Source of the DNA: an uncultured Candidatus Saccharibacteria bacterium
Lineage (GTDB): Bacteria; Patescibacteriota; Minisyncoccia; Phycocordibacterales; UBA9973
Reading direction: 5' to 3'
Assembly (NCBI GenBank): GCA_964527235.1
Contig: CAZGNC010000002.1
Coordinates: forward strand, 82,381-146,380
Length of the DNA: 64,000 nt
Shown here piece after piece: positions 54,982-63,113 of the stretch. Below the pieces are notes generated by a model. That model was not told the origin of the DNA. It ran no database searches and was given only the letters and a program-made list of their open reading frames with translations. How positions within the stretch are numbered: the stretch's first letter is position 1; each line of letters begins with the position of its first letter. Both the position numbers and the translations under genes were made by a program.

Positions 54982-55638
54982 TCAGCTTGATGTTCTCTTT
55001 CTGATTTTGTATGCGTCGACAATGAATCCCAGCGAGATAATCTGCTGGAGAGTGAACCATACGTATTGCTCTCTCCACATGAGCGTTGCAGTCACTACAT
55101 TCATCAGCATGTATGCGAAGTACTGTCGCTCGTCGTCCTTCGCTTGTAGGTACGTCCCAAGCAGAAACCCACCAGAAGCAGCAATTTCCAACCACTGGTT
55201 GATGGTGATGAACCCTCCAAAGTAGTGGAAACTGTAGCCAAGTCCGAACCCGATTAGTATGTATACAATCGGATCAAGCTGGCCGAGTGTCTGATCAATC
55301 TTCTCCTTGGTGGTACCGCGCATCGCGAGCAGGAGCCCGAGCACCATGACCGGAAATGCACCTGCCTCGAGGCCGGCGAATATCCAGTTATCCTTGATAA
55401 GGAGCATTGCGACCACTGCGGGCAATCCCGTGATGTACACCAGCCATGACCTAGTACGCCACGTTTGTGCGACCACTAGATCAATTCGCTTGGTCCGCTC
55501 ATACCGCGAACAGAAGATCTTGTGAAAGAGGTAGAACGCACCTCCCCAAGTTTGTAGAAAGACTTCCATCTGGTCCTCCGTTGTAGGGTTTCGACGAACT
55601 TTCGGATACATAATAGCACTTTTAAGGATTATTGTCAA
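54982..55638 (-). CDS. Polytopic membrane protein, possibly PnuC-like nucleoside transporter; GC content clearly above the local average
   Basis: About 7 TM, 218 aa. GC is roughly 50% by inspection against about 37% for neighbours. The family assignment is weak. Confidence 0.45.
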   Translation of the reverse strand: MTIILKSAIMYPKVRRNPTTEDQMEVFLQTWGGAFYLFHKIFCSRYERTKRIDLVVAQTWRTRSWLVYITGLPAVVAMLLIKDNWIFAGLEAGAFPVMVLGLLLAMRGTTKEKIDQTLGQLDPIVYILIGFGLGYSFHYFGGFITINQWLEIAASGGFLLGTYLQAKDDERQYFAYMLMNVVTATLMWREQYVWFTLQQIISLGFIVDAYKIRKRTSS

Positions 55639-57959: not shown

Positions 57960-58937
57960 TTATTTTTTACTATGAAACTTCTTATGTATTTCTTTTAAAT
58001 GTTTATCTGTGACGTGGGTGTATATTTGCGTAGTGATAATGCTCGAATGGCCTAGTAGTGATTGCACAGATCGTATGTCTGCGCCGTTTGAGAGTAGGTC
58101 AGTGGCGAAGCAGTGTCGTATAACGTGCGGAGTTACTTTCTTGGCGATGCCCGCCTTAGTTGCGTAGAACTTTACTATTCGTTCTATCGAACGTCGGTCG
58201 AGGTTGCCGTATTCTTTACCTTTGTGTTTTTTCTTGTCATCACTTCCACTTTTTTTGTTTTTAGTTTTACTTAGTTCTGCGGGCTCGATACTTACGAAGA
58301 GCCCTTCTTCCATATCTTTGCGAGCATCTAGATATCTTTTCAGTGCAGATCTGGCTCGGTCAGAGATGAACACTACTCTTATTTTTCCACCCTTACCACG
58401 TACTGAGAGTTCTTCGGAGTTTGAGTTTAGGTTGCGCGATAGGGAACATAGCTCTCCCACGCGGAGCCCAGTAGAAAATAGTACTTCAAGTATGGCTTTG
58501 TCTCGCAATTCTTTTATGTCACTTCCTGATGGTGCAGCCAGAAGTCGCTCTAGTTCTTCGGCTGTTATAAGGTCTAGGTGTCTTTCATTTAGCTTTGCTA
58601 GTTCTATCTTGTCAGAGTTCATCGAGGTTATGTCTCTCTTGGCTAGATACTTAAGGAACATCCTCAGTGCAGTCATATAGTAGTTCTGAGTTCGTTTTGA
58701 AATTGTTTCGCGAATGTCTTTGTTGCGACCGGTGGGTTGGTTGTTGAGCCAAAGACGAAACTCTCTCACAGAGTCGAGGTTGATCTTGTCGGGACTCTTT
58801 ATCCCTTTTTTCTTTTCTATAAAATCCAAGTACTTACCGAGATAGAAGTCGTAGTTCTCGATAGTGCGTAACGCCGCCCCGCGCTCTATCTCTAAGTATT
58901 CTAAGAATTGCGTTTTAAGTTCTTTGAGTGTTGCCAC
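57960..58937 (-). CDS. Tyrosine site-specific recombinase, XerC/XerD-like, with a Lys-rich insertion
   Basis: Catalytic R...HxxR...Y region (HVIRHCFATDLL...GHSSIITTQIYTHV) and an N-terminal core-binding domain. There is an extra KNKKSGSDDKKKHKGKEYGN insert. Confidence 0.85.
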   Translation of the reverse strand: MATLKELKTQFLEYLEIERGAALRTIENYDFYLGKYLDFIEKKKGIKSPDKINLDSVREFRLWLNNQPTGRNKDIRETISKRTQNYYMTALRMFLKYLAKRDITSMNSDKIELAKLNERHLDLITAEELERLLAAPSGSDIKELRDKAILEVLFSTGLRVGELCSLSRNLNSNSEELSVRGKGGKIRVVFISDRARSALKRYLDARKDMEEGLFVSIEPAELSKTKNKKSGSDDKKKHKGKEYGNLDRRSIERIVKFYATKAGIAKKVTPHVIRHCFATDLLSNGADIRSVQSLLGHSSIITTQIYTHVTDKHLKEIHKKFHSKK

Positions 58938-59065
58938 CCCAATATTCTAGCATTTTATTGTCTGGGACATTGTGCGACATGGGTTGACTTTTGGGTGTTT
59001 TTATGTTTAATATATAGTAGGTTTGTAGTTCGTCTCAGGTTCACCCTTTAGAAGGAAAAGGTCCC

Positions 59066-59398
59066 ATGAACAGTGTCATTGCGCGTCGCCAGGGAATCCT
59101 TGTCCGGGCGGTCATCGTCATTCTTGCTCTTGCAAGCGTGGCGATCACAACCTCTCGCTCGCCGGTCAGGGCCTCAGTGAGGGGTGAAATCCCCGCTGAC
59201 GGGGAAACGTGGATCAAGGTGGATTCGGGTCGGCACGTGTTGGTGCCGAGCGAGGACATGATGTCGCTCACTCGCTTCCAGATCGACTCGATCTTGTGCA
59301 AGTGGGAGCCGGAGAATGCTCCGGCGGTGTATTGCAACCCTGCTGATCGCAAGGTGTTCACGCCGGACAGCGTCCGGCGGATGGTCGGGACGAAGTAG
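59066..59398 (+). CDS. GC-rich small secreted or membrane-anchored hypothetical protein (110 aa)
   Basis: The ORF has a good Shine-Dalgarno (aggaaaagg) and an N-terminal hydrophobic segment. GC is roughly 60% in an approximately 37% GC genome. Confidence 0.45.
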   Translation: MNSVIARRQGILVRAVIVILALASVAITTSRSPVRASVRGEIPADGETWIKVDSGRHVLVPSEDMMSLTRFQIDSILCKWEPENAPAVYCNPADRKVFTPDSVRRMVGTK

Positions 59399-59416
59399 TT
59401 TCGTCCCCAGTGTTAC

Positions 59417-59450
59417 CGGCCCCGCCCACAAGCGGGGCCGTATCTATTTC
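59417..59450 (+). terminator. Rho-independent terminator (CGGCCCCGC ccacaa GCGGGGCCG followed by a T-rich run)
   Basis: Perfect 9-bp GC stem followed by TATCTATTTCC. Confidence 0.6.
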
Positions 59451-59496
59451 CATAGACCCCCTTGCTTTTTTATAGGTTTTATGCTAGGATATACGT

Positions 59497-59760
59497 ATGT
59501 TAGCTACAAAGAAAAAACAGACAATTATTAAGAAACATCAGATTCACGAGAAAGATACTGGCTCCCCAGAGGTGCAGGTAGCTGTTTTGTCTACTCAAAT
59601 CGACGAATTAGCCAAGCATTTGAAGAAGCACAAGAAGGATAATCACTCCCGAAGAGGCCTAATCAAGATGGTTGCTGATCGCCGAACTCATTTGAAATAT
59701 TTAGAGCGCAAAAACAAGACTCGTTACGATGCTTTGGTCAAGAAAATGGACCTCGCGTAA
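59497..59760 (+). CDS. rpsO: 30S ribosomal protein S15
   Basis: ...GSPEVQVAVLSTQIDELAKHLKKHKKDNHSRRGLIKMVADRR... is the S15 signature; 87 aa. Confidence 0.9.
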   Translation: MLATKKKQTIIKKHQIHEKDTGSPEVQVAVLSTQIDELAKHLKKHKKDNHSRRGLIKMVADRRTHLKYLERKNKTRYDALVKKMDLA

Positions 59761-59786
59761 TATCTCCTCGGTGCTATAATTAAAAT

Positions 59787-60302
59787 ATGACAGTTATAAA
59801 ACATAAAGAACAGCGTGTCGGGGTTTTTATCGATACGCAAAATCTCTATCACAGTGCTCGCAATTTATATAAAGCTCGGGTTAATTTCGGTGCGGTATTA
59901 AAAGATGCAGTCGCGGGGCGCAAGCTCGTGCGTGCGGTGGCGTACGTCATCACTACCGAAGCGGGGGATGAGAAGAATTTCTTCGAAGCTCTAGAGAAGT
60001 TAGGTATCGAAACCAAGACTAAAGATTTACAAATTTTTGCTGGCGGATCCAAGAAAGCTGACTGGGACGTGGGTCTTGCAGTAGATGCTATCAAGATGTC
60101 TGCGCGACTAGACTCTGTAATAATTGTTTCTGGAGACGGGGACTTTATTCCTCTTGTTGAATACTTACAGACTATCGGTGTGCAGGTTGAGGTGGTTTCG
60201 TTTGGTAAATCAACTTCTGGGAAACTACGTGAAACTGTAGATGACTTCGTGGATCTTTCTGAGAATCCTCGCAAGTATCTCATGATGAGTGGTGGGAAAT
60301 AG
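59787..60302 (+). CDS. NYN/LabA-like (DUF88) domain protein
   Basis: VGVFIDTQNLYHSA...VIIVSGDGDFIPLVEYLQTIGVQVEVVSF matches the NYN-domain Asp pattern; 171 aa. Confidence 0.7.
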   Translation: MTVIKHKEQRVGVFIDTQNLYHSARNLYKARVNFGAVLKDAVAGRKLVRAVAYVITTEAGDEKNFFEALEKLGIETKTKDLQIFAGGSKKADWDVGLAVDAIKMSARLDSVIIVSGDGDFIPLVEYLQTIGVQVEVVSFGKSTSGKLRETVDDFVDLSENPRKYLMMSGGK

Positions 60303-60391
60303 GGCTTGACCTAACATAAGTTCGGGTGTAGTTTGAGCTTAGAGTTCTTACTCGTTTGTTACTGTGTTATTCCTCAACAGGAGTGTGTGCC

Positions 60392-60808
60392 ATGGAAATG
60401 CCTCGCGGTACGGCTGACAGGAAGGACAGGATCCATATCTTGTCGCAGATCTGCGATTCTGTTCTCCCATACGTCTGCCAGCAGCAAGCTGAGTACCACA
60501 ATATCTGGGCTGTTGTTGCGGAGAAGGTGCCTGGATTTGTTCTTCTGCTTGCTGCAGGCAATGTATGGTATGAGGTTGCTGACTTCGACGATCGGCGCCT
60601 GGCAGTATGTGACTGGAGCAGGTATTCGTACGAGAACATCTTGCTCAGCTTAGCAACTGCTGTTGGGCAAGCACTTGATTGCCCGATCGAGGATGCAACA
60701 GCTTCAGGCGGAATTCCGCCCGAAGCAGTCCGTTCAAGACTCCTGGCTGTGCAGGAAGTCCTAAATGGCATTGTCGCACAGGAACTTCGTGCGTCGGCTC
60801 TCAAGTAG
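60392..60808 (+). CDS. GC-rich hypothetical cytoplasmic protein (about 138 aa)
   Basis: ATG preceded by a strong Shine-Dalgarno (caggag). GC is roughly 55-60%. The overlapping alternative-frame ORFs are typical of GC-rich DNA and were discounted. Confidence 0.4.
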   Translation: MEMPRGTADRKDRIHILSQICDSVLPYVCQQQAEYHNIWAVVAEKVPGFVLLLAAGNVWYEVADFDDRRLAVCDWSRYSYENILLSLATAVGQALDCPIEDATASGGIPPEAVRSRLLAVQEVLNGIVAQELRASALK

Positions 60809-60832
60809 CCTGTTCCGACATCGTTCTGGATG

Positions 60833-60876
60833 GCGGGCGCCTCAATCGAGGCGCCCGCTTTTTGTTTGATTTTTCA
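60833..60876 (+). terminator. Rho-independent terminator (GCGGGCGCCTC aatc GAGGCGCCCGC followed by TTTTTGTTTGATTTTT)
   Basis: Perfect 11-bp GC stem plus a T-run. Confidence 0.65.
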
Positions 60877-60998
60877 CTTGAAAATGCTAATCTATACTAA
60901 GTAATTATTAGTTAATCAGTTCGCGTTCGGACACATAGTAATTGTTCTTGAAGTATAAGGAACAATACTGCAGTTCGAACACGAGCTCTAAGTAAATT

Positions 60999-63113
60999 AT
61001 GCAAAAAAAAGAATATAGTTTAGAGATCGGCGGTAAAACCCTAACGGCTATTTTTACCGATTTGGCAGAGCAGGCTCACGGTTCAGTGATGCTTAAGTAT
61101 GGCGAGACTATTGTCTTGGCTACAACTTGTATATCAAAAGACAAGCAAGAAGGTCTTGGCTTTTTTAATTTAACTGTAGACTATGTTGAGAGGTTTTATG
61201 CTGCGGGTAAGATTTCTGGATCGAAGTTTGTGAAGAGAGAAGGCAAACCCAGCGAAGACGCCATACTAGCTAGTCGTGTCATCGACCGCACACTACGCCC
61301 GTTATTTGATCAGTCTATTCGCCATGCGGTGCAGGTGATAGTGACGGTTATATCAGTAGATGATAACGACCCTACAATTCTCGCAGTTAATGCTGTATCC
61401 CTTGCACTAGCAGTATCGGACATTCCATGGAACGGCCCAGTAGGCGCAGTACGTATAGGTAGATACGATGATGAAACTCTTAAAGTAAATGCAGTTCAGG
61501 GTCTTCGTGAAGATGATGCGAAATATAAATTCGACCTTACTGTTTGCGGTAAGGATGGCAACATCAACATGATCGAGGCTTCGGCGCACCAGACTAGCGA
61601 GGATGAGCTTGAAAGTGCCCTTGCGCAAGCAGTAGAAGAAATCGCTAAGCTTGAGAATTTCCAGAAACAAATAGTCAAAGAAATCGGTAAAGTAAAAAGA
61701 GTTATCGAGAAAGAAGAAATAAATCCCGAGTCAGTCGAACTATTTAAAGAAAATATATTACCAAAGATGGAGCAGGCTATTTTCGCTGGTCCAGGAAAGA
61801 AGGAGATAGACGCACTGCACAGTGAATGGAACAAAATGGTGAAAGCCAAGTATCCAGACAGGAAAGATTTTGCTTTAGAAGACGCGCTTTTTGACGACAC
61901 TGAAAATGACATATTACACAAGAAGGCGATAGAGAGTGACAAGCGCGCCGACGGGCGAGCCATGGATGAGCTACGCGATCTCTATGCGCAAGCAGGAGGG
62001 CTATCGACCGTACTACATGGTTCTGGGATTTTCTATCGAGGAGGTACGCACGTTCTCTCTGTTCTAACTCTTGGAGGACCAGAAGATAAACACATGGTTG
62101 ACGGCATGCAGACAAAGTCTGAGAAAAGATTTATGCACCACTACAACTTCCCACCTTATTCAGCAGGTGAGGTTGGTCGTGCAGGATTTACCAATCGTCG
62201 TGAAGTTGGGCACGGAGCGCTGGCTGAGAAAGCATTGCTCATGGTTCTGCCTTCTCCGGTAGAGTTCCCATACACTATGCGTGTAGTTTCTGAATCAATG
62301 GCATCCAACGGTTCTACCTCACAGGCGTCTATCTGTGCAGGCACACTCGCGCTAATGGATGGTGGCGTACCTATCAAGGCACCTGTTGCTGGTATCGCGA
62401 TGGGGTTGATGTATGAGAGTGATAGTAAATATAAAATTCTTACTGACATTCAAGGCCCTGAAGATCATCACGGAGATATGGATTTCAAAGTTGCCGGCAC
62501 TCGCGAAGGCATCACCGCGATTCAGCTCGATGTGAAAGTCGATGGCGTGCCAGTTAAGATCCTAGGCGAAGCTATGCGTCAGTCAAAGAAAGCCCGCCTT
62601 TCTATAATCGACAGAATTGAGAAAGAAATAAGTGCCCCAAGAAAAGAAATTTCTACCAATGCGCCGAAGATATTGATGATGAGAATTAAGCCTGATCAGA
62701 TAGGGATGGTTATAGGTAGTGGTGGTAAGACAATCAAAGAAATAAAGGAAAACAGTGGTGCTGAAATCACTATCGAAGATGATGGTACTGTGTACTTCAC
62801 AGGTAAAGACGGCTCTGCTGAGAAAGCTAAGAAAATAGTAGAAGAAATGACTCATGAATTTAAAATTGGCGAAACTCTGAAAGGCGAAGTTGTGAAAATT
62901 GCCGACTTCGGAGCATTTGTGAAATTAAATTCTTGGACTGATGGCATGGTGCATATTTCAGAGATGGCGCCATTTCGCGTAGAGCGAGTTTCGGATATAA
63001 TAAAAGAAGGAATGATTGTGCCAGTGAAAGTTATCAAGATAGATACTGAACGTGGCAAACTAAGTTTGTCGATTAAAGAAGCAGATAAAGATTTCTTTAA
63101 GAAGCCTTTATAG
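60999..63113 (+). CDS. pnp: Polynucleotide phosphorylase (PNPase)
   Basis: Two RNase PH-like domains, a KH domain (GKVIGSGGKTIKEI) and an S1 domain (GETLKGEVVKIADFGAFVKL); 704 aa. Confidence 0.95.
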   Translation: MQKKEYSLEIGGKTLTAIFTDLAEQAHGSVMLKYGETIVLATTCISKDKQEGLGFFNLTVDYVERFYAAGKISGSKFVKREGKPSEDAILASRVIDRTLRPLFDQSIRHAVQVIVTVISVDDNDPTILAVNAVSLALAVSDIPWNGPVGAVRIGRYDDETLKVNAVQGLREDDAKYKFDLTVCGKDGNINMIEASAHQTSEDELESALAQAVEEIAKLENFQKQIVKEIGKVKRVIEKEEINPESVELFKENILPKMEQAIFAGPGKKEIDALHSEWNKMVKAKYPDRKDFALEDALFDDTENDILHKKAIESDKRADGRAMDELRDLYAQAGGLSTVLHGSGIFYRGGTHVLSVLTLGGPEDKHMVDGMQTKSEKRFMHHYNFPPYSAGEVGRAGFTNRREVGHGALAEKALLMVLPSPVEFPYTMRVVSESMASNGSTSQASICAGTLALMDGGVPIKAPVAGIAMGLMYESDSKYKILTDIQGPEDHHGDMDFKVAGTREGITAIQLDVKVDGVPVKILGEAMRQSKKARLSIIDRIEKEISAPRKEISTNAPKILMMRIKPDQIGMVIGSGGKTIKEIKENSGAEITIEDDGTVYFTGKDGSAEKAKKIVEEMTHEFKIGETLKGEVVKIADFGAFVKLNSWTDGMVHISEMAPFRVERVSDIIKEGMIVPVKVIKIDTERGKLSLSIKEADKDFFKKPL

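Follow-up and report, generated by a model that had tools for sequence, protein, structure and literature searches.

The window (the whole 64-kb stretch of DNA that was analysed) contains an orphan open reading frame of 110 codons (59066-59398, plus strand, 60.4% GC) located between a divergently oriented gene for a Xer-type tyrosine recombinase of 325 amino acids (57960-58937, minus strand; Pfam Phage_integrase, 2.9e-38) and the rpsO gene encoding ribosomal protein S15 (59497-59760, plus strand; Pfam Ribosomal_S15, 7.7e-31), both neighbours being as the earlier note had named them. On the recombinase side lie a motif (58967-58982, plus strand; window copy ACATTGTGCGACAT) at the ancestral left edge of this intergenic slot and a sigma-70-like promoter found by a promoter scan, P1 (58984-59013, plus strand; TTGACT, 18-nt spacer, TAATAT), which is nearly identical across the four lineages that carry the open reading frame and is predicted to drive the orphan gene. 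The Shine-Dalgarno sequence that had been claimed corresponds to a Shine-Dalgarno-like, purine-rich stretch, gaaggaaaagg (59051-59061, plus strand), which ends 4 nt before the ATG; equivalent purine-rich stretches precede the open reading frame in two of the other lineages (L004 and L007). L004 and L007 also have a small inverted-repeat element, which was looked for in the window and is absent from it.

Three hairpins follow on the plus strand. Hairpin a (59361-59379; CGCCGGAC / GTCCGGCG) lies within the open reading frame, has 81% of cells paired over the four lineages, and may be a mere consequence of the conserved P-D/E-x-V/I-R codons. Hairpin b (59387-59407; GGGACGAA / TTCGTCCC; 91% of cells paired) extends across the stop codon and has undergone one compensatory A-U to C-G change, coupled to a K-to-Q substitution in the last residue. 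Hairpin c (59417-59440) is the perfect 9-bp GC stem described previously: all nine pairs are G-C, the loop is 6 nt, the tail TATCTATTTC passes the threshold of the terminator scan (at least five T in eight bases), and pairing is 100% in all four lineages, two of which have a C-to-U change that leaves a G-U pair. Such a G+C-rich stem-loop with a run of T behind it fits an intrinsic (factor-independent) terminator, and termination is predicted here. Beyond the hairpins, P2 (59462-59490, plus strand; TTGCTT, 17-nt spacer, TGcTAGGAT) matches the family-wide rpsO promoter of insertion-free genomes (TTGCAA-N17-TGCTAATAT), its TGCTAGGATAT being identical in L022 and L081, and stands 6 nt from the rpsO ATG as it does in block-free genomes; this apparently ancestral promoter would mark the right edge of the insertion. 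The possibility that P1 is a duplicate of P2 arising from target duplication is not convincing (18 of 500 shuffles score equally).

The jump to approximately 60% GC over 420 bp of otherwise AT-richer DNA, reported in the earlier note, is confirmed: the block at 59041-59460 is 59.8% GC, versus 39.6% for the 64-kb window. The sliding-window analysis that had been suggested places all the top ranks within the block (360-bp windows; mean 39.6%, sd 4.2%), with a maximum of 62.8% at 59081 and a peak z of about 4.9. The 420-bp segment from 59041 is also the most atypical of the 64 kb in trinucleotide composition (deviation 0.098, versus a mean of 0.041 and sd of 0.010), making the block the strongest outlier on both measures. 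Among 55 non-overlapping open reading frames, the orphan ranks first in both GC (0.61) and GC3 (0.75, the mean GC3 being 0.37). Its GC content at codon positions 1, 2 and 3 is 0.57, 0.48 and 0.75, and the order GC3 > GC1 > GC2 holds in all four variants of the gene (GC3 0.70-0.75), a pattern typical of a genome of about 60% GC. A strain-specific GC-rich orphan block is present at 60330-60900 as well.

Three diverged orthologues, of 92, 115 and 121 amino acids, occupy the same slot between xer and rpsO (ENA ERZ2227954, ERZ2271710 and ERZ2272263; GenBank CAZUID010000024; Logan SRR29305605), and their proteins diverge much faster than those of the neighbouring genes (50-75% identity versus 85-100%). 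The exact 110-residue protein is recorded only in Logan gene calls; the NCBI record containing the neighbouring genes does not supply it. As judged from the four orthologues, the open reading frame is a real protein-coding gene: all indels among them are multiples of three and in frame, dN/dS is 0.28-0.49, and substitutions at codon positions 1, 2 and 3 of the closest pair number 15, 13 and 31. The frame-preserving indels and the concentration of substitutions at third positions make it very unlikely that the block is mainly a structured RNA, such as an S15-responsive leader or an insulator of rpsO, with an incidental open reading frame. Its location directly upstream of rpsO would suit such an RNA, as would the fold z-score of -5.5 for 59014-59460 and the three 3' hairpins, which all four lineages retain with one compensatory pair, a result that 85 of 500 shuffles equal; S15 autoregulatory RNAs are known to vary from lineage to lineage. 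However, in RNAalifold on the four sequences covariation contributes only -1.5 of -80 kcal/mol, the two strands give an equal folding signal, and rpsO retains P2, its ancestral promoter, as in genomes without the block. Rfam searches of the whole window at the gathering threshold, and of 58900-61050 at E <= 10, found nothing in the block, a match at 59415-59497 on the opposite strand (E = 6) being at chance level.

The folding of the open reading frame also bears on whether the gene could have arisen in place, de novo or out of GC-rich palindromic intergenic DNA, its GC content being due to hairpin-forming sequence. GC-rich hairpins are frequent in the same intergenic region of sister genomes, both strands of the open reading frame region fold unusually well (z = -3.65 and -3.48), long open reading frames occur by chance in GC-rich DNA (the minus strand here has two, of 106 and 85 amino acids), and the orphan status of the gene would fit too. 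Nevertheless, a local origin is unlikely: the order GC3 > GC1 > GC2 indicates long-term coding in a GC-rich genome rather than random GC-rich DNA, purifying selection has conserved motifs and cysteines over four lineages, and the folding signal itself is not conserved, z versus shuffled controls being -3.65, -2.45 and -2.6 in three lineages but -0.5 in L087. Stable folding of the region, found in three of the four lineages, is not needed by the main explanation, acquisition from a foreign genome.

The product of the orphan gene is probably an exported or membrane-anchored protein. The N-terminal hydrophobic anchor ascribed to it earlier corresponds to a 19-residue segment (residues 10-28, codons 59093-59149, plus strand; Kyte-Doolittle 2.47) preceded by a flank of charge +2, which may be a signal peptide or a signal-anchor. 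In all four variants the 19-residue Kyte-Doolittle maximum is 2.5-3.0 and the N-terminal flank carries a charge of +2 to +4, giving the positive n-region and 15-20-residue hydrophobic h-region of Sec-exported or signal-anchored proteins; candidate signal-peptidase sites (V-R-A or A-L-A, each followed by S) are possible in the variants. AlphaFold, run twice on alignments of three and four sequences, predicted a helix from residue 3 to residue 29 in both models, with pLDDT (47.6 and 53.0) too low for a fold search to be meaningful, and since the structure model is unreliable, topology and fold are read from the amino acid sequences only. The motifs P-x-D-G-E-x-W, Y-C-N-P-x-D and R-x-M-V-x-T are conserved in the family, and two cysteines (Cys78, 59297-59299, and Cys90, 59333-59335) are invariant; the charge, the hydrophobic segment and both cysteines are kept even where the N-terminal sequence diverges. 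The product is, at our best guess, a small protein outside the cytoplasm that contains a disulphide loop. Sequence searches of Pfam, NCBIfam, PHROGs and PDB with the four variants returned nothing significant.

The sharp compositional step and the metagenomic source of the DNA could suggest that a fragment of a high-GC organism was joined to a contig of the candidate phyla radiation during assembly, but this is next to impossible. The block and both junctions are identical in three separately assembled runs (Logan SRR14271372, SRR14271373 and SRR14271366), the promoter and motif sequence on the flanks runs on unbroken and is conserved, and assemblies from other projects have diverged orthologues at this very position; the block is therefore no chimera. 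The family has only four members among approximately 15 billion proteins, none of them actinobacterial. When 1.84 billion representatives were searched exhaustively with HMMER, one further orthologue (P0003) was found, the only other match, a 917-residue FG-GAP repeat protein (P0004), being spurious (6% probability by hhalign profile comparison). No homologue beyond the clade was found in a search of 5.8 billion clusters, nor any relatives by degenerate peptide patterns on JGI metagenome contigs and IMG/VR or by tblastn against phage and plasmid collections. Sister genomes, which the earlier note had proposed to inspect, show a patchy distribution: four lineages of one narrow clade carry the gene, and none of 79 other species-level loci with the same xer-rpsO-NYN-pnp synteny has a homologue. 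Those syntenic relatives whose names are curated belong to the Nomurabacteria/Paceibacterota (Parcubacteria group) and not to the Saccharibacteria, and the best-matching named genomes are Nomurabacteria/Paceibacteria; the label Saccharibacteria is attached to some third-party (TPA) metagenome-assembled genomes.

The gene order in which exoIII and xer diverge from rpsO, an NYN-domain gene and pnp is preserved in 72 loci, two-thirds of which have a gap of less than 300 bp, without insertion, between xer and rpsO, while unrelated cargo occupies this gap in one third of related genomes. In E. coli and other bacteria, rpsO and pnp form an operon with a structured leader hairpin ahead of pnp. The present loci likewise have pnp downstream of rpsO with a structured leader hairpin before it, but differ in the NYN-domain gene that lies between the two and in the lineage-specific cargo found before rpsO and before the pnp leader. 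Interruption is about as frequent between NYN and pnp (34%), a slot without a recombinase, and between exoIII and xer (31%) as between xer and rpsO (33%). The recombinase has SAM-like N-terminal domains beside Phage_integrase (Pfam), and its best NCBIfam matches are XerD, XerC and XerA (237 and 225 bits for XerD and XerC); it is far below the cut-offs of the integron-integrase models (TIGR02249, 122.5 bits versus 265; PRK15417, 70.9 versus 435). It is a housekeeping Xer, outside the insertion.

The earlier note had left open whether proximity to this recombinase was causal. The idea that it mobilized the block as a cassette, either integron-like or by exploitation of Xer recombination, draws on its divergent orientation to a short promoter-proximal open reading frame that ends in an inverted repeat, on the conserved 17-nt motif that borders the slot on the xer side, and on the unrelated cargo of related genomes, but is most improbable, because xer-rpsO synteny is conserved with or without an insertion, the NYN-pnp slot is equally interrupted, and the block lacks flanking direct repeats. 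In 47 of 87 loci there is exactly one occurrence of ATTGTGCGACA, next to the start of xer in every case and in either orientation; the motif, whose consensus is AAAATATTGTGCGACAT, has a single copy in the window. As an Xer target capturing insertions, the 17-nt motif was rejected: it has no flanking second copy and lies in the divergent promoter region, and a search for a degenerate copy at the far end of insertions gave chance-level results (4.88 mean mismatches versus 4.83 in controls). Nor does the block have the mobility signatures of an island (its own integrase, a tRNA target, flanking direct repeats), the tRNA genes of the window lying only at 43-50 kb.

Integrons consist of an IntI integrase, an attI site and cassettes in which a promoterless open reading frame is followed by an attC hairpin. 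The block shares with them a tyrosine recombinase gene divergent from a short open reading frame that ends in an imperfect palindrome, whereas its recombinase is Xer-like, its open reading frame has its own predicted promoter, only simple hairpins follow the stop codon, and it is a single unit rather than an array; no GTTRRRY core site was seen at the block (GTTACCG at 59413-59419 does not fit), and the recombinase gene adjoins rpsO even where there is no insertion. CTX phage and the gonococcal genetic island are integrative elements that exploit Xer recombination at chromosomal dif. They resemble the block in being inserted beside a conserved short site, which here travels with the xer gene, but the block is not bounded by the site and a degenerate copy of it, and the 17-nt motif, located in the divergent promoter region, is a putative dif at most.

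Changes at third codon positions on the terminal branches of the four orthologues are strongly directional, with 16 from GC to AT versus one from AT to GC, a count that rests on 17 sites since only four lineages are available (binomial p = 0.0003 versus 50:50). The neighbouring native NYN gene has 16 versus 14 (Fisher p = 0.004 for the difference in direction). A three-taxon polarity count (19:16) was discarded in favour of the four-taxon count because changes on the internal branch cannot be polarized with three taxa. The ratio of 16:1 is only marginally unusual (p = 0.055) if changes track the available sites (73% GC third positions), and thus shows that the gene is off compositional equilibrium, not where the DNA came from. 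Foreign origin from a high-GC genome is nonetheless the best reading of the block and is supported by its sequence characteristics; as no donor homologue was found anywhere, it is composition and the direction of substitution, and these two only, that argue for horizontal transfer. The recent date that the earlier note had attached to a foreign origin does not hold: the gene occupies the same slot in four lineages and its dS is 0.6-0.95, so the gain was not recent. This range lies within that of the neighbouring genes (0.48 for NYN and 1.4 for xer; flanking-gene dS is approximately 0.5-1.4 among the four lineages). The gene is best described as an ordinary, fairly old horizontal acquisition without a traceable donor.

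The actinobacterial host of an episymbiont, which had been put forward as the obvious donor, is not borne out. A GC content of 60% and GC3 of 0.75 would be compatible with many Actinomycetota, the N-terminal S-R-R-I-I-V/A of L007 and L087 loosely resembles a twin-arginine signal, of a kind common in actinobacteria, and the GenBank label of L007 is Saccharibacteria. Capture specifically from such a host is highly doubtful, however: the roughly 15 billion proteins searched contain no homologue beyond the clade, actinobacterial or otherwise, and the curated syntenic genomes belong to the Nomurabacteria/Paceibacterota, for which we know of no established host. Actinomycetota were seldom donors in a survey of aquifer Patescibacteria, accounting for one of the tabulated events (PMC12455944). 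Distinctly unlikely is a broader variant, in which the product would be a fast-evolving factor, secreted or at the surface, that was acquired from an unsampled high-GC partner (host) and the block at 60330-60900 would be a second sample from the same donor; if true, both GC-rich blocks would be molecular fingerprints able to identify the clade's host once it is sequenced.

Patescibacteria commonly carry genomic islands and singly transferred genes, often with unrecovered donors (PMC12455944). The islets described there (Gios et al., mSystems 2025) resemble the block in being lineage-restricted accessory genes of foreign composition between core genes, with an unrecovered donor and a transfer that is not recent; the block differs in consisting of one 110-residue gene with no mobility gene, in having no homologue beyond four lineages, and in that its GC decay is directly measurable.

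The explanation that we favour, with fair confidence, is insertion in the ancestor of the clade, vertical inheritance with decay of GC content, an exported product, and no involvement of the recombinase. A segment of approximately 420-480 bp (about 58984-59445), comprising P1, the 5' untranslated region, the open reading frame and the hairpins, would have been inserted into the short divergent intergenic region between xer and rpsO in the ancestor shared by a genus-level clade of Nomurabacteria-like, ultra-small Patescibacteria, its GC-rich part (about 59030-59445) deriving from a donor genome of perhaps 60-65% GC. Inherited vertically since, it would have been retained as a protein-coding gene under relaxed purifying selection while its GC content drifted slowly down to the AT-rich composition of the host genome. 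The gene would be transcribed from its own promoter, with two tandem hairpins insulating rpsO, and the neighbouring housekeeping Xer would have had no part in the insertion. The product, with its positive N-terminus and single hydrophobic helix, would most likely be inserted or exported by the Sec pathway, placing a C-terminal domain of 70-90 residues outside the cell, with the two invariant cysteines probably in a disulphide loop.

Taken alone, the gene is of little weight, being one more lineage-restricted orphan in a genome of the candidate phyla radiation, a group already documented to gain accessory genes horizontally. The case is small and clean, and allows the loss of foreign GC content to be followed directly, with a native gene on its flank as the reference. 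The gaps between the genes of the xer-rpsO-NYN-pnp block generally serve as places where cargo is inserted, a pattern useful for judging similar GC spikes elsewhere in these genomes. The gene also adds a fast-evolving candidate exported protein to the few clade-specific surface factors through which uncultured Parcubacteria might interact with partners.

A GC-rich block (59041-59460) separates an Xer-type recombinase gene (xer, 57960-58937, minus strand) from rpsO (59497-59760). Its GC content is 59.8%, and that of the 110-aa open reading frame (ORF) within it (59066-59398, plus strand) is 60.4%, versus 39.6% for the window. In 360-bp sliding windows across the 64 kb, all top ranks fall inside the block (maximum 62.8%, z about 4.9); its trinucleotide composition is the most atypical of any 420-bp segment; and the ORF tops the 55 non-overlapping ORFs of the window, with a GC of 0.61 and a third-position GC (GC3) of 0.75 against a mean of 0.37. 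These measures bear out the compositional outlier described in the earlier note, and the accompanying features are present as claimed between xer and rpsO: a purine-rich ribosome-binding stretch upstream of the ORF, a hydrophobic N-terminal segment, and a terminator-like all-GC hairpin of 9 bp downstream (59417-59440). The three GC-outlier ORFs of the window all lie within one 6-kb cluster; the third (54982-55638, minus strand; 218 aa, GC 0.50, GC3 0.60) encodes a multi-pass membrane protein, which matches NMN_transporter weakly (E = 0.006).

A chimeric assembly, which the same note had raised as a possibility, is contradicted by the recurrence of the block. Three Logan assemblies made separately (runs SRR14271372, SRR14271373 and SRR14271366) contain the block and both junctions base for base. 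Diverged orthologues from other projects occupy the same position between xer and rpsO: three ENA assemblies (L004-L006) encode a 92-aa form, GenBank CAZUID010000024 (L007) one of 121 aa and a Logan assembly of SRR29305605 (L087) one of 115 aa, each about 60% GC inside loci of 41-45% GC. The block is therefore genuine, the diverged orthologues being stronger evidence against an artefact than the identical assemblies. The deposited annotation seems to omit the gene or to call it differently, because the exact 110-aa protein is recorded from Logan gene calls only, while the NYN-domain gene and a 138-aa ORF nearby are recorded also from an NCBI contig of 216,689 bp.

Comparison of the four variants indicates that the block is a protein-coding gene. 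GC at the three codon positions is 0.57/0.48/0.75 in the window ORF and similar in the others; all length differences are multiples of three (blocks of 8, 16, 5, 2 and 1 codons); differences between the closest pair are distributed 15/13/31 over codon positions, mostly third; and dN/dS is 0.28-0.49. Despite sequence drift, all four keep an N-terminal flank with a charge of +2 to +4, a hydrophobic stretch of 19 residues (Kyte-Doolittle 2.5-3.0) and a pair of invariant cysteines spaced 9-12 residues apart, and the motifs P-x-D-G-E-x-W, Y-C-N-P-x-D and R-x-M-V-x-T are retained among them. A recognisable RNA was considered and rejected on this coding signature and on the lack of any Rfam match to the block. 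Folding is stronger than in shuffled controls (z = -5.5 over 59014-59460 and -3.65 over the ORF); the signal is equal on both strands, varies among the orthologues (z = -2.45, -2.6 and -0.5) and is accompanied by weak covariation across the four sequences. All four lineages share three hairpins near the 3' end (one within the ORF, one across the stop codon, and the terminator-like stem), with one compensatory pair coupled to a K-to-Q change of the last residue; we read the latter two hairpins as a putative tandem terminator or insulator.

A search with S15, taking one genome per species, returned 80 loci. Curated names among them are Candidatus Nomurabacteria, Paceibacterota or Minisyncoccia (Parcubacteria group); a set of third-party (TPA) metagenome-assembled genomes, the closest (L007) among them, bear the title 'uncultured Candidatus Saccharibacteria' but are intermingled, by similarity, with records named Nomurabacteria. 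Gene order is conserved throughout the related loci, with exoIII and xer transcribed in one direction and rpsO, NYN and pnp in the other. Two-thirds of the 72 loci holding both xer and rpsO have a gap of less than 300 bp between them (median 127 bp); in the remaining third, unrelated cargo occupies 330-2541 bp. Among this cargo are a sigma factor, a HicAB pair, a transposase-like gene, an amidase, an ArsR regulator and small membrane proteins. The comparison with sister genomes that the note had called for places the gene in four lineages, with no relative of the 110-aa protein encoded in the 79 other species-level loci. Within the clade that carries it, protein identity is 85-88% for xer, 91% for exoIII, 95-97% for pnp and 99-100% for NYN and S15, versus 50-75% for the orphan protein; the nearest outgroups reach at most 72% for xer and 84% for pnp. 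By these comparisons the gene is confined to a roughly genus-level clade and is by far the fastest-evolving of its neighbourhood. Synonymous divergence of rpsO between the window and L004, L007 and L087 is very low (dS 0.06-0.10, versus 0.48 for NYN and 1.4 for xer), which suggests that rpsO is under strong constraint on its codons or RNA, or has recombined recently.

The limits of the insertion can be placed from landmarks that the relatives share. In about 50 loci (for example L038 3944-3954 and L042 3940-3950), a 17-nt motif (consensus AAAATATTGTGCGACAT) immediately precedes the promoter of xer; it occurs once per locus, in either orientation, and remains with xer when cargo is present. The window copy (58967-58982) is the only one in the 64 kb, and the motif could be an Xer operator or recombination site. 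On the other side, positions 59462-59490 carry an intact copy of the rpsO promoter typical of the whole family, TTGCAA-N17-TGCTAATAT, which stops a few bases short of the ATG and has the same form in insertion-free genomes such as L022 and L081. Because the motif stays with xer and the rpsO promoter matches that of insertion-free genomes, the predicted inserted unit comprises what lies between them: a putative sigma-70-like promoter (58984-59013), a 52-nt leader, the ORF and the hairpins, of which only about 59030-59445 is GC-rich. In the window (59485-59497) and its relatives, the ATG of rpsO follows the end of the -10 element (TAGGAT or TAATAT, preceded by TG) by only about 6 nt, implying that rpsO mRNA would be leaderless or nearly so in this group. 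Intergenic DNA of relatives contains small inserts that have terminal inverted repeats and look like miniature transposable elements: between terminator and rpsO promoter (L007, about 608-690), between rpsO and NYN (L004 1199-1310, L007 993-1100) and adjoining the xer motif in the xer-rpsO gaps of L015 and L050; the window lacks the L004/L007 element.

The causal role that the note had left open for the adjoining recombinase is not upheld, and the enzyme was very probably not involved in the insertion. It scores 237 bits as XerD and 225 bits as XerC, far under the cut-offs for integron integrases, so that an integron cassette was rejected. An integrase-borne island was likewise discarded, xer being a core syntenic gene present with or without the insertion and the block having no flanking direct repeats, as was an element exploiting Xer, since no second degenerate copy of the AAAATATTGTGCGACAT type occurs in the xer-rpsO insertions beyond chance (4.88 versus 4.83 mismatches). 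Interruptions exceeding 300 bp affect 34% of NYN-pnp slots, which have no recombinase, and 31% of exoIII-xer slots, matching the frequency for xer-rpsO (33%); rpsO-NYN is the sole tight slot (5%). The recombinase itself carries a lysine-rich low-complexity insertion, SKTKNKKSGSDDKKKHKGKEYGN, within its catalytic domain (residues about 222-250).

Support for a foreign origin of the block, as the note proposed, comes from composition and the direction of third-position change, not from homology. When sites at which one lineage departs from the other three are polarised, third codon positions of the orphan gene show 16 GC-to-AT changes versus 1 AT-to-GC, and those of the adjacent native NYN gene 16 versus 14 (Fisher p = 0.004; binomial against 50:50 for the orphan gene, p = 0.0003). 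This asymmetry argues that the GC content is not maintained and is decaying towards host composition, as expected if the gene arrived GC-rich, and the order GC3 > GC1 > GC2 suggests that the sequence had long been coding in a genome of roughly 60-65% GC. The acquisition is not recent, contrary to what had been claimed: it precedes the split of the four lineages, and the dS of the gene (0.6-0.95) is comparable in magnitude to the values for NYN and xer. Nor is the suggested actinobacterial host supported as donor, there being no match in Actinobacteria. Single-sequence and profile searches of 5.8 billion clusters found only the variants, exhaustive HMMER search of 1.84 billion representatives gave, apart from variants of the family, a single hit to a 917-aa FG-GAP repeat protein (P0004), rejected as spurious, and JGI metagenome contigs, IMG/VR, and phage and plasmid collections held no homologue outside the four variants. 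Orphan status neither proves nor disproves transfer, because divergence this rapid could already have erased homology to the donor. The orphan gene is small, old and probably acquired horizontally, of a kind already documented in Patescibacteria, a group with frequent genomic islands and single-gene transfers whose donors are not recovered (PMC12455944).

The NYN-pnp slot of the window holds a second GC-rich block (60330-60900, about 53% GC). Against about 15 billion proteins, its orphan 138-aa ORF (60392-60808) has no match but itself; the block also contains a long hairpin at 60476-60560, a palindrome at 60698-60729 and, at 60832-60859, a strong terminator. Its RNA fold z-score is -4.9 to -5.6, it may be either protein-coding or a structured RNA, and it is absent from L087 (gap of 139 bp). 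In L007 the slot (1637-2612) holds a different, AT-rich gene (34% GC) and a run of N between duplicated pnp-leader sequence, a sign that this record contains a scaffold gap or mis-join. Directly upstream of pnp is a long hairpin (60918-60990; helix 60920-60932 with 60973-60985), conserved in Nomurabacteria-like genomes, with homologous sites in 32 related loci (for example L087 4822-4912). In its 12-pair outer helix, 89% of cells are paired across 33 sequences, with compensatory changes at six pairs; the covariation score was reached by none of 500 shuffles, and slid controls gave 18-46% pairing. The hairpin has no Rfam match and, by analogy with the autoregulatory or processing leader of E. 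coli pnp, probably serves as such a leader.

As for the product of the orphan gene, its positive N-terminus and hydrophobic helix predict Sec-dependent insertion that would leave 70-90 C-terminal residues outside the cell. The protein would be either cleaved and released (at putative V-R-A|S or A-L-A|S sites) or membrane-anchored; the two cysteines, being invariant, suggest a disulphide-closed loop. AlphaFold models the helix alone with any confidence (pLDDT 48-53), and searches of protein families, phage proteins and solved structures gave no match. The most to which we can commit is a putative small extracytoplasmic protein under relaxed constraint. Speculatively, such a product would be suited to acting at the surface or in interactions of an organism thought to be partner-dependent.
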